From Alphaproteobacteria bacterium (lineage in GTDB: Bacteria; Pseudomonadota; Alphaproteobacteria; RF32; CAG-239), in the NCBI GenBank assembly GCA_031550205.1, contig JAVBOV010000028.1, positions 1 through 57,005 on the forward strand: a DNA stretch of 57,005 nucleotides, given 5' to 3'. Shown here piece after piece: positions 2,746 to 55,002 of the stretch (the first letter of the stretch is position 1; each line of letters starts with the position of its first letter). Under the pieces are notes generated by a model that saw only the letters and a list, made by a program, of their open reading frames with translations, had not been told where the DNA came from and ran no database searches. A program made the position numbers and the translations under genes.

Positions 2746-3031
2746 TCAACCAACCATCCTTATTATTTCCTCTTTCCTGCCTTAGTGCAGCTTTTTAGAT
2801 TTTGTTTGCTCGTTTTGCGTCCTCTGGCTCGTAGCGTGTTCTGCCGAAAGAACAATAAGATAGTCAAAGAAAGATAAAGGAGACAGGCAGAACTTTGCGA
2901 AGAGAGCAAAATGAGCATTACAAAATATTAAAAGCGGAACTCAGGCAGGGTCTTTTGGTTACTTTGGGACGCCAAAGTAACAAACCCCCGCGCAGGTAAA
3001 GGGCCGAAAAAAAAATAAGGATGAAATTGCC
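2746..3031 (+). repeat. Family-A ~280-bp structured intergenic element, copy 1
   Basis: Long imperfect hairpin (cctgccttag...gttctgcc / ggcagaac...ctcaggcagg), then a second hairpin ggttactttgg-gacg-ccaaagtaac (2957-2981), then an A-rich tail ending gaaattgc. Homologous to 17120-17397 and 43441-43733. Confidence 0.8.
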
Positions 3032-17119: not shown

Positions 17120-17397
17120 AAACCGCTCATCCATATAAAATTCGCCTTAGTGCAGCTTTTTAGATTTTGTTTGCTCGTTTTGCGGCCTTCGGCTCGTAGC
17201 GTGTTCTGCCGAAAGAAGAATGAGACAGCAGAAGAACAGTAAAAGAGGAAGGCAGAACTTTGCGGAGAGAGCAAAATGAGCATTACAAAATCTTAAAAGC
17301 GGAACTCAGGCGAAAGCCTTTGGTTACTTTGGGCTTTCAAAGTAACAAAACCCTATGCAGATAAAAAACTACGAAAAAAAATAAAGACGAGATTGCC
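17120..17397 (+). repeat. Family-A structured intergenic element, copy 2
   Basis: cgccttagtgcagctttttagattttgtttgctcgttttgcgg...ggcagaactttgcgg...cggaactcaggc, then hairpin gttactttg-ggcttt-caaagtaac (17322-17346), then an A-rich tail ending gagattgcc. Confidence 0.8.
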
Positions 17398-29991: not shown

Positions 29992-30095
29992 GAGTTTGAT
30001 TTGTGAGCGTGCTACGCAGTGATTTTGCGGGCGTGAGTGTACGCTTTTGTACATGAGCCCGCAAAATTACAAGTATGACGCCATAAATCAAACTC
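29992..30095. repeat. Family-B ~100-bp palindromic element, copy 1 (abuts the hydA stop codon)
   Basis: gagtttgattt...gattttgcgggc-gtgagtgtacgcttttgtacatga-gcccgcaaaatt...aaatcaaactc. Homologous to 40890-40992. Confidence 0.8.
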
Positions 30096-31885
30096 TACTT
30101 CGGCTCAACAGCTTCGTCTTTCTTATACGCCTCACGCTTAACATAATGCGTATGCAAAAGCTCGTGTGCCTTGTGCGAAGACGGTTTTTCCAAAAATTCA
30201 TCATAAAGCTTCTTAATCGATTCGTTATGGTGAGAGAAATGGTTCTTCATTCCCTTATCCTCATCCAGCAAACCTTTGGCGCGCTTTAAGCGAATATCGT
30301 TGGTAATGCCGCGAGGTTTCTGCTGATCAGGAAGCAAGGCTCTCGGCTGTCCGCCGCCGGAAATACATCCGCCGCGGCAAGCCATAACCTCAACAAAGTG
30401 ATACGGAGTTTCAAGGCCTGCCTTCTTGGCCTCGCGAACCTTTTGCAAAACCTTTTCCACATTTCCGGTTCCATGCGCCACCGCAATACGAACCTTGTTT
30501 CCGGCAACGTCAATTTCAGCTTCCTTAACGCCTTCCAAGCCTTCAATCTGCTTAAAATTAACCGTTTCCAGCTCTTTGCCGGTAATGTAAAAATAGGCCG
30601 TGCGCAAAGCCGCCGTCATAACCCCGCCGGTTGTGCCGAAGATTGTGCCAGCGCCGGAATATTCACCCAGCGGATTATCTGCCTGCTCATCTTTTAAAGC
30701 CCTGAAATTAATGCCCGACTGCTTAATCATTCTTGAAAGCTCTCTGGTGGTCAAAGACACGTCCACATCTTGGAACCCTGAAGATCTCATGTCTTCGCTG
30801 CGCCTGATTTCCCACTTTTTGGCTGTGCAGGGCATAATTGAAATCACCCTGACCTTAGCTGGGTCAAGCCCCATTTTCTGGGCATAATAAGTCTTGGCCA
30901 TAGAGCCCACCATCGATTGCGGAGACTTACAGCTTGAGAAATGAGAAATCATGTCATGATGATACTTTTCCATCAAATCCACCCAAGACGGGCAGCAAGA
31001 TGTAATCAAAGGCAGGCTGTCCGGCTGCTTGGTAAACCTGTTCACAAACTCGGTTGCTTCTTCAATAATGGTCAAATCTGCACCAAAGTTGGTGTCAAAT
31101 ACCTTGGAAAAGCCCAAGCGGCGCAAAGCGGCATAAAGCTTGCCGGTCAAATTTGTGCCGATTTCATAGCCGAAATCTTCGCCGATTGCCACTCTAACCG
31201 CCGGAGCAATCTGCACAATAGTGTGCAAATCTTTGTCATTAAGCATATCCCAAACCTTTTGGGTCTCGTCATACTCAACAATTGCACCGGTCGGACAGTG
31301 TGCCGAACATTGACCGCACTTAATGCACGGACTCTCGTTTAGTGGAATTCCGCCGGCAGCCGTAATTTTGGTTGCCAATCCGCGGTGCAAAAAGCCCAAA
31401 GCCCAAACGTTTTGCTGATGCTGACAAACTTCCACGCAGCGTCCGCAGGTAATGCATTTTGAAGCATCCAAAACAATCGATTTTGTAGAATCATCAATCG
31501 GGTGCATCTTAGTTAGGTTGGGAAGTCTGGCCTCTCTAATCCCAAAGTCCTGCGTAATATCTTGCAACTCGCAGGTTCCTGAGCGAATGCAGGTCAGACA
31601 GGAGTTCGGATGGTTGCTCAAAATCAGCTCCAAAACCGTTCTTCTCACGCTCACCAGTTCCGGGTCAGAGGTAATAATGTTCATACCTTCTTCCGCCGGC
31701 GTGCAGCAAGAGCGCAAAATTCTGCCGTTAACCTTAACAATGCACAATCCGCAGCCTGCTGACGGGTCAACATCCGGGTGCTTGCACAAAGTAGGAATAT
31801 CAATCTGAATGTTTCTGGCTGCTTCTAAAATTGTCGTACCCTGAGGAACTTCAACATCAAAATTATCAATCTTTAATTTCACCAT
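30095..31885 (-). CDS. hydA: [FeFe]-hydrogenase catalytic subunit (M3-type, with C-terminal small-subunit-like tail)
   Basis: H-cluster motifs TSCCPSW, MPCTAKKWE and EVMACRGGCISGGGQP. N-terminal 2Fe-2S domain, HPNSCLTCIRSGTC, and two CxxCxxCxxxC ferredoxin motifs. Confidence 0.95.
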   Translation of the reverse strand: MVKLKIDNFDVEVPQGTTILEAARNIQIDIPTLCKHPDVDPSAGCGLCIVKVNGRILRSCCTPAEEGMNIITSDPELVSVRRTVLELILSNHPNSCLTCIRSGTCELQDITQDFGIREARLPNLTKMHPIDDSTKSIVLDASKCITCGRCVEVCQHQQNVWALGFLHRGLATKITAAGGIPLNESPCIKCGQCSAHCPTGAIVEYDETQKVWDMLNDKDLHTIVQIAPAVRVAIGEDFGYEIGTNLTGKLYAALRRLGFSKVFDTNFGADLTIIEEATEFVNRFTKQPDSLPLITSCCPSWVDLMEKYHHDMISHFSSCKSPQSMVGSMAKTYYAQKMGLDPAKVRVISIMPCTAKKWEIRRSEDMRSSGFQDVDVSLTTRELSRMIKQSGINFRALKDEQADNPLGEYSGAGTIFGTTGGVMTAALRTAYFYITGKELETVNFKQIEGLEGVKEAEIDVAGNKVRIAVAHGTGNVEKVLQKVREAKKAGLETPYHFVEVMACRGGCISGGGQPRALLPDQQKPRGITNDIRLKRAKGLLDEDKGMKNHFSHHNESIKKLYDEFLEKPSSHKAHELLHTHYVKREAYKKDEAVEPK

Positions 31886-39361: not shown

Positions 39362-39368
39362 CATTCAC

Positions 39369-39399
39369 GTCATTGCGAGGCCTTTAGGCCGCGGCAATC
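39369..39399. repeat. GTCATTGCGAGG..GCGGCAATC hairpin repeat
   Basis: gtcattgcgaggcctttaggccgcggcaatc is nearly identical to 54849-54879. Confidence 0.7.
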
Positions 39400-39496
39400 T
39401 CATTCTTACCATCCATATTTTGTCTAAATCTCTATTGCATTATCCCCAAACTTATGCTACCCTCCCCTCAAATCAAAATTATTAAATCATATCATT

Positions 39497-40889: not shown

Positions 40890-40992
40890 GGCTTGATGTG
40901 AGGGTGTGCTGCGCCGTAACTTTGCAGGCGCGAGTGTACACTTTAGTACATAAGCCTGCAAAATTACAAGCATGACGCCCTCAAAGCAAGCC
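40890..40992. repeat. Family-B palindromic element, copy 2 (abuts the aroK stop codon)
   Basis: ggcttgatgtgagggtg...ctttgcaggc-gcgagtgtacactttagtacataa-gcctgcaaaatt...cgccctcaaagcaagcc. Confidence 0.8.
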
Positions 40993-41576: not shown

Positions 41577-41717
41577 ATGCGTCAAAAAAAATCAAAAAAA
41601 TTTTTATACATCCTTGCCGGCGTAGCCGTTTTGGGCATCTTATTTGCCGCCACGCGTGAAATGCCGATTAAAACCGAGCACGTTGAGCAGCCCTTAGAGA
41701 ACTCTTTCTTGAAATGA
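41577..41717 (+). CDS. Possible 46-aa single-pass membrane peptide
   Basis: MRQKKSKKFLYILAGVAVLGILFAAT.... The stop overlaps the xerD ATG (ATGA). No clear RBS. It is the only part of track ORF 41232-41717 that is not antisense to aroK. Confidence 0.3.
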   Translation: MRQKKSKKFLYILAGVAVLGILFAATREMPIKTEHVEQPLENSFLK

Positions 41718-42721
41718 ATAGACCTGTCTCAAAATTGAATTTTTCGGGTCAAATGGAGGAAGACCCGGAGCACAGAAGCGGAGTGTACACTTTAGTACCT
41801 GAGCATTCGAGCACCGGAAGCGACCACGCAGTTGAGCAGAAAAAACAATTTATAGACAGGTCTAAAGACCAGATCAGAAATTTCCTAAATACCATTGTCG
41901 CTGAAAAAGGCGCATCAAAAAACACAGTTGAAGCCTATAAAGCAGATCTGGAGCAATTTTTTGAATTCAGCTCCACCTGCAATAAGGAAGATTTATCTGA
42001 CTTTATCAGATATTTAAGCACTCAGGGCTTTGCCGCCAAAAGCATCAACCGCAAGGCCTCTGCCCTAAGAGAGTTTTTTAAGTTTTTGTTTTCTGAAAAA
42101 GAAATCAAAGAAAACCCGGCTGTCCACTTGTCCGGCCCCAAGGCTGAAAAACCGCTGCCCAAATTTTTAACCGAAACCGAAATCCGCAAATTGGCAGAAA
42201 ACGCCAACGACATCAAAATTCGCTGCATGATAGAACTGATGTACGCCTGCGGCCTGCGTGTTTCAGAACTGGTCAGCCTGCCTGAAAACTGCATCAATTT
42301 TGAAAGAAAGCAACTCTTGGTCCGCGGCAAAGGCTCCAAAGAAAGAATTGTGCCCATCAGCGATTCGGCCGCCAAAATCGCTTTGGAGTATTTAACTTTC
42401 AGAGAAAACAGCTTAAAAAGAAAATCGGTTTGGTTTTTTCCATCTTCCCGCTCCGCTTCCGGCCACCTAACCAGAAATGCTTTTTTCAAAAGAATTAAAG
42501 ACATCGGAGCCAAGGCCGGCATCTATGCCCAAAGGCTTTCCCCCCATGTCTTAAGACACTCTTTTGCCACTCATTTGTTAAACCACCACGCCGACCTGCG
42601 CAGCGTCCAAAAAATGCTCGGCCACGAAGACATCTCCACCACTGAAGTCTACACCCACATCATCACAGGCCAACTAATCAAAACCATCCAAAAAAACCAC
42701 CCCTTAGCTAAGAAACATTAA
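41714..42721 (+). CDS. xerD: Tyrosine recombinase XerD with a 48-aa N-terminal insertion
   Basis: SAM-like N-domain (IRNFLNTIVAEKGASKNTVEAYKADL) and catalytic region with RVSEL, GKGSKER, HVLRHSFATHLL and GHEDISTTEVYTH. There is no in-frame ATG/GTG/TTG between codon 14 and the conserved core. Confidence 0.93.
   Translation: MNRPVSKLNFSGQMEEDPEHRSGVYTLVPEHSSTGSDHAVEQKKQFIDRSKDQIRNFLNTIVAEKGASKNTVEAYKADLEQFFEFSSTCNKEDLSDFIRYLSTQGFAAKSINRKASALREFFKFLFSEKEIKENPAVHLSGPKAEKPLPKFLTETEIRKLAENANDIKIRCMIELMYACGLRVSELVSLPENCINFERKQLLVRGKGSKERIVPISDSAAKIALEYLTFRENSLKRKSVWFFPSSRSASGHLTRNAFFKRIKDIGAKAGIYAQRLSPHVLRHSFATHLLNHHADLRSVQKMLGHEDISTTEVYTHIITGQLIKTIQKNHPLAKKH
41720..41863. repeat. 144-bp inverted-repeat element inside the xerD coding sequence (family-B related)
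   Basis: Termini are agacctgtctcaaaattg ... caatttatagacaggtct. The core gcggagtgtacactttagtacctgagc matches the family-B core. Length is exactly 48 codons. Confidence 0.75.
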
Positions 42722-43440: not shown

Positions 43441-43733
43441 AACCAACTATCCTTATACTCTTTCTTTCCTGCCTTAGGAAAAGTATTTAGATTTTGTTAG
43501 CGTAGTCTTGCGTCCTTCGGCTTGAGCGTGAGTCCTGCCGACTTAGAAAGTAAGACAGCTAAAGAACAATAACTCACTAAGGCAGGACATTAGCGAGAGA
43601 GCAAAACGGGCATTACAAAATCTTAGAAAGCGGAACTCAGGCTGCCTTTTTTGCCATACTTTTTGGGCAAGCAAAAAGTATGAAAACTACGTGCAGGTAA
43701 TAAACTCTAGGAAAAAAATACGAATGAAATTGC
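43441..43733 (+). repeat. Family-A structured intergenic element, copy 3 (most diverged)
   Basis: aaccaactatccttat...cctgccttagg...gtcctgcc / ggcaggac...cggaactcaggctg, then hairpin catacttttt-gggcaagc-aaaaagtatg (43655-43682), then an A-rich tail ending gaaattgc. Confidence 0.75.
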
Positions 43734-53562: not shown

Positions 53563-53576
53563 ACCCTCTTCAAAAC

Positions 53577-53602
53577 GTCATTCTGAGCGCAGCGTAAGAA
53601 TC
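53577..53602. repeat. GTCATTCTGAGCG..GTAAGAATC hairpin repeat
   Basis: gtcattctgagcgcagcgtaagaatc. Confidence 0.6.
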
Positions 53603-53630
53603 TCGGCAAAACACTTTGTCTAAAAACCTC

Positions 53631-54802: not shown

Positions 54803-54848
54803 ATACCCAAACACCCTCTTCCCTGCCTTAGTGTATATATAAAAAAAC

Positions 54849-54961
54849 GTCATTGCGAGGGCTTTAGCCCGCGGCAATCTCATCTGAATTTTTTTCTAGA
54901 ATATTTTACAATTAGATAGATAGGATTCTGCTGAGATTGCCGCACTCCGCTCGCAATGACG
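54849..54961. repeat. Inverted doublet of GTCATTGCGAG hairpin repeats (REPIN-like)
   Basis: gtcattgcgagggctttagcccgcggcaatc (54849-54879) and gattgccgcactccgctcgcaatgacg (54935-54961) face each other across a 55-bp AT-rich spacer. A solo family-A left terminus cctgccttagtg lies at 54822-54833. Confidence 0.6.
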
Positions 54962-55002
54962 TTTTTAAAACCGCCTTTACTCTTTTTGTGCAAACAAAAA
55001 AC

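Follow-up and report, generated by a model that had tools for sequence, protein, structure and literature searches.

The stretch of DNA analysed here, called the window throughout, is the 57,005-nt contig JAVBOV010000028.1 of an alphaproteobacterial assembly (GCA_031550205.1; lineage RF32, CAG-239). Its xerD gene, encoding a tyrosine recombinase, contains a long palindromic element between the second and third codons, which we compare below with Rickettsia palindromic element 1 (RPE-1), a repeat that was reportedly described by Ogata et al. in 2000. The features of the locus are the following:

41578..41717 (+): conserved small membrane-protein open reading frame (ORF), 46 aa; its TGA overlaps the ATG of xerD (ATGA)
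41714..42721 (+): xerD ORF, 335 aa, reading through the element; ATG 41714 is the orthologous, presumably translationally coupled start
41719..41864 (+): RPE-1-type palindromic element, 146 nt including the terminal T and A (TAGACCT...AGGTCTA)
41719..41743 (+): left terminal inverted repeat arm, 25 nt, with TA at 41719-41720
41753..41755 (+): alternative in-frame ATG at codon 14, within the left hairpin arm; start of the automated gene call (P0001, 322 aa)
41780..41802 (+): apex module GGAGTGTACACTTTAGTACCTGA with tandem G.A/A.G, a 6-bp stem GUGUAC/GUACNU and a hexaloop
41840..41864 (+): right terminal inverted repeat arm, 25 nt, with TA at 41863-41864
41864..42721 (+): portion of xerD homologous to ordinary XerD, residues 51-335

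The net addition to xerD amounts to 144 nt or 48 codons (41720-41863), inserted in frame into an A/T-rich site between codons 2 and 3. According to a repeat search, the 25-nt arms of the element are 84% complementary. Its 18-nt termini, AGACCTGTCTCAAAATTG and CAATTTATAGACAGGTCT, pair as inverted repeats at all but 2 of 18 positions, for which 0.05 matches would be expected by chance. When folded as a single strand, these 144 nt form a single extended hairpin of -50.4 kcal/mol, a stability that none of 200 shuffled sequences reached (z -5.95, dinucleotide shuffling). Only one of the six reading frames of the element is open. This is the RPE1 frame, and it is in phase with xerD; a random 48-codon stretch of the same base composition would be open with a probability of about 0.08. 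In this frame, the apex (41780-41802) codes for GVYTLVPE. An earlier note on this DNA, made from the sequence alone, had read codons 3-50 as an inverted-repeat element of 144 nt and had pointed out that the xerD ATG at 41714 overlaps the stop codon of the preceding ORF. Both statements hold: the computed arms and hairpin are those of such an element, and the ATGA overlap with the TGA of the 46-aa ORF is present.

Homology to XerD proteins begins at residues 49-56 of the window protein: the NCBIfam match starts at residue 49, that of PDB 1a0p (E 1.7e-55) at 53 and that of Pfam PF02899 at 54. The protein has the architecture of a tyrosine recombinase, with an N-terminal SAM-like domain (PF02899, residues 54-129) followed by a catalytic domain (PF00589, residues 150-316) with the R-K-H-R-H-Y signature; in an alignment of 49 homologues the family-invariant catalytic residues R182, K206, H278, R281, H304 and Y313 are all kept. 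It scores 306.7 against the NF001399 model (cutoff 279) and 296.6 against the XerD equivalog model, which is under that model's cutoff of 329.6. The best among 8000 scored XerD homologues are 298-301 aa long and 63-66% identical, covering only 84-85% of the query, and none of the 8000 aligns to the residues of the insert. Whether 12 or 49 sequences are aligned, the N-termini of the homologues fall just past residue 50 of the window protein, where its XerD sequence resumes.

Deletion of the 144 nt in silico yields ATG AAT AAA GAC CAG ATC... (MNKDQIRNFLNTIVAEKGASKNTVEAY; MNKDQIRNFLN...), the counterpart in the related locus L035 being MSKNPVDNFLNMIVAEKGASKNTVDAY. This element-free N-terminus lines up with the orthologue starts MSKNPVDNFLN and MKNPVANFLE; the earlier note had aligned it with the N-terminus of E. 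coli XerD. The gene order aroK(-), small ORF(+), xerD(+) is common to the window and to two relatives, L035 and L036, both of which lack the element; the stop-start junction into xerD is ATGA in L035 and TAAATG in L036. We conclude that the segment is an insertion into an otherwise intact xerD gene. The empty sites in the two relatives are too diverged to reveal the target sequence.

The small ORF upstream of xerD deserves a remark of its own. It comprises 46 aa in the window and 47-48 aa in the relatives (L035 2858-3004; L036 2857-3000), with the layout MRQKKSK, one hydrophobic helix and EHVEQPLENxFLK, and is stop-start coupled to xerD in all three genomes. No Pfam match is on record for it.

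Family identity of the element

From the terminal T to the terminal A, the length is exactly 146 nt in the xerD element, in a Rickettsia copy of RPE-1 (L038) and in a Holosporales copy (L039), and all three have ends of the form T[A/G]GACCT...AGGTC[T/C]A. In a global alignment of 153 columns, 96 of 146 nt (66%) are identical between the xerD element and the Rickettsia copy (z 7.9 against shuffles). A DNA hidden Markov model (HMM) of RPE-1, trained on one Rickettsia and four Holosporales copies with the window element excluded, gave a single match in the 57-kb window (nhmmer), namely 41720-41822 (103 nt, 55.6 bits, E 1.7e-16). From a sequence-based alignment of five copies, RNAalifold derived one consensus hairpin, with compensatory changes at 23 of its 54 pairs.

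At the protein level the link to RPE1 came only through an exhaustive phmmer search, a word-indexed protein search with the insert peptide alone having returned nothing. Over 1.84 billion representatives phmmer found four matches at E < 1e-3, three of which bear repeated modules of the type ...GDTERRSGVYKEVHEHSSTGST...; two of these three, one of them a DapF with three modules, stem from one Holosporales metagenome-assembled genome (MAG). The Holosporales RPE1 module P0121 matches the xerD peptide at E 3e-4. A profile built from the modules and the xerD peptide retrieved 76 proteins, of which about three quarters are named 'palindromic element RPE1 domain-containing protein'; they include proteins of Holosporales MAGs, Rickettsia conorii, R. 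felis, R. honei and Midichloria. The xerD insert (RPVSKLNFSGQMEEDPEHRSGVYTLVPEHSSTGSDHAVEQKKQFIDRS) and the R. conorii RPE1 peptide both have 48 residues, 19 of which are identical in an ungapped alignment, and residues 4-50 of the xerD product align to positions 2-48 of the 48 positions of the NCBIfam model TIGR01045.

Because length, termini, DNA HMM and shared hairpin agree, the xerD element is a divergent copy of RPE-1 itself. Its length falls within the about 105-150 bp of RPE-1, its open frame has 48 codons and the frame of the host gene is kept. The host is a non-Rickettsia alphaproteobacterium, which does not agree with the description of these elements as 'Rickettsia-specific'; this is a historical rather than a defining criterion, since the family is also annotated in Holosporales and Midichloria MAGs. 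The earlier note was correct in recognizing the behaviour described for Rickettsia palindromic elements, as seen in the in-frame insertion and in orthologues devoid of it. Its assignment to 'a different repeat family' is contradicted by the RPE-1 HMM match, the 146-nt length, the termini and the end-to-end alignment to TIGR01045.

That assignment had been based on a sequence core common to the xerD element and two intergenic palindromes of the window, termed family B:

29992..30095 (+): family-B intergenic palindrome, having only the apex in common with the xerD element; z -8.6
40890..40992 (+): family-B intergenic palindrome, likewise with only the apex in common; z -8.6; 3 nt from the aroK stop codon

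The core, GAGTGTACACTTTAGTAC, indeed recurs at 40932 (exactly) and at 30035 (with 2 mismatches), for which 0.01 matches would be expected by chance. Membership in family B was nevertheless overstated: the similarity is confined to the 18-24-nt apex, the arms are unrelated (z 0.5 or less), and a family-B HMM matches the xerD copy in the apex only. The open frames of the family-B palindromes gave no match against NCBIfam.

Several other identities were considered for the element. Neither the window nor three related loci gave a match to an Rfam covariance model at gathering thresholds, and at E values up to 10 nothing overlapped the xerD element. A phage or plasmid origin was rejected, as blastn searches against PLSDB and INPHARED returned chance matches of 23-31 nt only; the apex was found in none of the viral contigs. 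Integron attC, dif, K-turn, signal recognition particle (SRP) RNA, 6S RNA and hammerhead motifs were compared with it by eye, and no consensus fits.

Probable translation of the insert and rival explanations

In-frame start candidates within the element are TTG at codon 8, ATG at codon 14 and GTG at codon 24 (41783, in the apex), and no ATG, GTG or TTG follows in frame between codons 25 and 124. At least codons 24-50 must thus be translated from any canonical start, and a canonical start giving a complete N-terminal domain of XerD lies in the element or upstream of it. The earlier note had arrived at the same view that part of the element must be translated; its statement that no in-frame start lies between codon 14 and the conserved core missed the GTG at codon 24.

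We favour, with moderate confidence, the reading that an RPE-1 copy resides in xerD in its one open frame, that translation starts at ATG 41714 and that the product is XerD with a 48-residue insert. RPE-1 inserted into the A/T-rich site between codons 2 and 3, perhaps with duplication of a TA, and the net length of 144 nt together with the sole stop-free frame kept xerD open. The gene would have survived because the open RPE1 frame and a net length divisible by three act as a filter on insertions, as proposed for Rickettsia. The start codon in use is presumably ATG 41714, the ancestral start, coupled to the stop codon of the small ORF; since the overlap of ATG and stop codon is kept and no Shine-Dalgarno sequence is present, initiation likely proceeds through termination-reinitiation coupling. 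Ribosomes finishing the small ORF would be expected to melt the base of the hairpin, whose distance from the ATG is 6 nt. Recombinase core and catalytic residues would be unchanged in the resulting protein. This XerD variant is presumably made and active, and its insert is probably neutral or mildly deleterious, as are RPE inserts in Rickettsia proteins. The stable mRNA hairpin just past the start codon may lower xerD expression.

The earlier note had asked if the 48 residues form a surface appendage. In the AlphaFold2 prediction (49 homologues), residues 1-33 are a disordered tail (predicted local distance difference test, pLDDT, about 30), and residues 36-50 prolong helix A, which spans 36-65. 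Most of the core has a pLDDT of 83-94; the values fall to about 61 for residues 141-150 and to 55-75 in the C-terminal ~40 residues.

A number of observations weigh against the favoured reading. With TIGR01045, the xerD peptide scores 15.1 bits (E 0.017), half the NCBI cutoff of 30, compared with 61.9 bits for the Holosporales intermediate P0121 and 86.1 bits for the R. conorii peptide. Only one copy of the RPE-1 type lies within the 57 kb scanned, repetition many times in the host genome being a criterion for RPE-1. No Shine-Dalgarno sequence precedes either ATG 41714 or ATG 41753; none is found at the xerD starts of the relatives L035 and L036 as well. The hairpin of -50 kcal/mol, beginning 6 nt past the start codon, could block initiation. 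Finally, the element was set against a miniature inverted-repeat transposable element of the TA-duplicating type (mobilised by IS630/mariner), for which the criteria are terminal inverted repeats, a TA target-site duplication and a cognate transposase. TA at either end would be compatible with duplication of a TA target (142 + 2 = 144), but such a duplication is unproven, as the same TA...TA belongs to the inverted repeat of the palindrome and some Holosporales copies end in TG...CA.

Among the rival explanations, we give a modest chance to a start within the element, either from codon 14 (ATG, 41753) or from codon 24 (GTG, 41783), by which XerD would gain only 27-37 residues. Both codons are in frame, and the automated gene call on the contig begins at the former. 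They sit, however, in the paired arms and apex of the hairpin without an upstream Shine-Dalgarno sequence, whereas the ancestral ATG retains the stop-start overlap with the small ORF that is found in the relatives. The insertion could also have effectively silenced xerD, with the start hairpin blocking translation, the ORF still intact because the event is recent, and another recombinase resolving chromosome dimers. We regard this as unlikely, even though the hairpin from +6 is very stable, the equivalog score stays below its cutoff and a paralogue could lie outside the window. The invariant catalytic and structural residues of the 49 homologues are kept over 285 residues with no frameshift or stop codon, the divergence of the arms to 84% complementarity suggests that the insertion is not brand new, and RPE-containing genes of Rickettsia are expressed and active (PMC2229807).

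The two remaining explanations concern the origin of the segment. A hitherto undescribed repeat family ('family B'), separate from the RPEs and with an independently gained RPE-like in-frame behaviour, would agree with the identical 18-nt apex in the palindromes at 40932 and 30035 and with the TIGR01045 score below the cutoff. We hold it to be very improbable: the arms are unrelated and the family-B HMM recognizes the apex alone, whereas the RPE-1 HMM covers 103 nt, and length, termini and frame are those of RPE-1. Hardly any credence is left for the view that the segment is an ancestral N-terminal domain, specific to the XerD of this lineage, whose DNA is palindromic by chance. The comparison, made with other species, contradicts it: none of the 8000 XerD homologues aligns to the 48 residues, and this DNA is homologous to intergenic RPE-1 copies in other genomes.

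The shared apex and further repeats

Although the arms differ, the apex is common to elements of wide distribution. Scans of GTDB representatives, a set that does not include the window's own genome, and of metagenomes revealed long hairpins (z -3.5 to -8.6) whose arms differ but whose 22-23-nt apex is the same. Such hairpins are present in gut Alphaproteobacteria, a Rickettsiales MAG (L010), an Arcobacteraceae MAG (L006) and environmental contigs; the type represented by L005 (Ca. Scatocola) was found on about 16 contigs, mostly of human-gut origin. In the four GTDB genomes that bear such hairpins, the core has only one exact match per genome. All apex hairpins found elsewhere are intergenic, in both orientations and without a conserved neighbouring gene, and a single-copy noncoding RNA (ncRNA) gene with conserved synteny was therefore rejected as an explanation, as neighbours differ and orientations vary.

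In an alignment of 15 apex copies, 18 columns are invariant. The xerD copy departs from the others at 41799 (C versus A in the other 14), which breaks one pair of its apex stem. The xerD variant of the apex reads GAGTGTAC..GTACCTGAG, that of the Rickettsia and Holosporales RPE-1 copies CAGCGTAC-N6-GTACGTGAG. RNAalifold on a MAFFT alignment of the 15 apex-sharing hairpins recovered the invariant apex stem only, and polymorphisms across the about 16 orthologous gut copies are not compensated. Four loci are RPE-1-like beyond the apex (L028, L021, L022 and L010); in L010, the 3' arm is RPE-1-like and the 5' arm resembles family B. A loose RPE superfamily thus appears plausible from these likenesses.

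As to the conservation of the apex over the termini, and its identity between elements of one genome that have unrelated arms, a trans-acting factor or gene conversion are possible causes. It is a rather doubtful idea that the apex (RGYGTAC-N6-GTACRTGAG: tandem G.A, 6-bp stem, hexaloop), and not the ends, may define an RPE superfamily and be the site of a factor that mobilises or maintains RPEs. If true, apex recognition would open a way to study how RPEs move, a question that has lacked an explanation since 2000, and the 'Rickettsia-specific' elements would belong to a much wider superfamily defined by the apex. Conservation of the apex despite unrelated arms is the only aspect of this case that might yield new insight, namely into the mechanism of RPE spread.

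Some further observations concern individual palindromes. Each of the two family-B palindromes borders on the stop codon of a minus-strand gene and lies just after a terminator-like hairpin of its plus-strand neighbour. The last base of the palindrome at 29992-30095 is the first base of the CTA (TAG stop) of a minus-strand Fe-hydrogenase-like gene (30095-31885). The palindrome at 40890-40992 is absent from the spacer downstream of aroK in L035 (59 nt). In the alphaproteobacterial MAG HGM16780 (L004, 2966-3134), an apex hairpin fills the gatC-gatA spacer, antisense to the operon, and Ca. Scatocola (L005) has an element roughly 80% similar to it in another context. The 18-nt core also occurs in a non-hairpin context, TTGAGTGTACGCTTTAGTACCAGCAATCAAAAT..., at one apparent orthologous locus of flavobacterial MAGs (L001, L002, L003 and L008; Flavobacteriales / Crocinitomicaceae), the surrounding ~90 nt being conserved among the four. 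These are probably chance matches.

Two other repeats of the window are mentioned here for completeness. A sequence of ~240 nt is present three times with a mean identity of 81% (2771-3015, 17136-17380 and 43463-43653, plus strand). It contains internal inverted repeats and a terminal hairpin (TTGGTTACTTTGGG...CAAAGTAACAAA), and its third copy lies just downstream of two small XRE/helix-turn-helix (HTH)-like ORFs. It had no Rfam match and may be a multi-copy ncRNA or the end of a mobile element. An intergenic, nested palindrome of 124 nt was found at 54843-54966 (AAAAACGTCATTGCGAG...GCGGCAATCTCA...TGAGATTGCCGC...CTCGCAATGACGTTTTT), with partially similar stretches at 39366-39404 and 53569-53619; all six of its frames contain stop codons. 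It resembles the CGTCATTGCGAG-type palindromic repeats of Rickettsiales and may be a second RPE-like family in this genome.

Comparison with known systems

In-frame insertion of RPE-1 in proteins has been known since 2000, and the present case is tidy rather than surprising to the specialist. It illustrates cleanly how, in nature, selfish DNA can lengthen a protein by 48 residues with the frame retained, at a site that can be located through orthologous empty sites and synteny. A case outside the defining genus adds to the evidence against a restriction of RPE-1 to Rickettsia, evidence that so far lies mostly hidden in automated annotation. There is also a practical side, as gene callers truncate such genes (the database call for this xerD starts at codon 14); a mask based on RPE HMMs or covariance models would help to annotate alphaproteobacterial MAGs.

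In Rickettsia, RPE-1, -2 and -3 are often found in frame within ORFs, at solvent-exposed positions, and a guanylate kinase with an RPE insert is translated and functions as an enzyme of altered affinity (PMC10969869; PMC2229807; PMC3767692). The xerD element shares with Rickettsia RPE-1 the length of 146 nt, the ends TAGACCT/AGGTCTA, the long imperfect hairpin and the GTAC-N6-GTAC apex, besides the 66% DNA identity. Also shared is the sole open frame of 48 codons, which starts with RP..KL and ends with F..RS, as well as in-frame insertion into a conserved housekeeping gene at a solvent-exposed position. It differs in its host, which is not a Rickettsia and has a GC content of 43.6%, in a peptide that stays under the TIGR01045 cutoff and in being present once in 57 kb.

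Closest at the peptide level are the Holosporales RPE1 modules (GCA_031257795.1; P0121-P0123), with 44-48% identity over 48 aa. They have the same length and are likewise in frame in conserved genes, including DapF (three modules) and a GTPase gene in L039. The Holosporales genomes are dense in such copies, about five per 16-20 kb with some inside called genes, whereas the window holds one; Holosporales copies often end in TGGACC...GGTCCA. Two proteins of this group are extreme cases of protein-coding palindromes outside Rickettsia: P0123 (Holosporales MAG, MDR1333019.1), a diaminopimelate epimerase with two sense modules and one antisense RPE1 module in frame, and P0122 (MDR1333324.1), a 743-aa protein with four.

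More distant parallels are the ERIC/IRU, the 107-bp Correia/NEMIS and the YPAL elements, which are stem-loop elements of 100-150 bp with TA termini and occasional in-frame gene fusions (PMC2229807). The xerD element has no sequence relation to any of them, and while it is the termini that are conserved in those families, here it is the apex.

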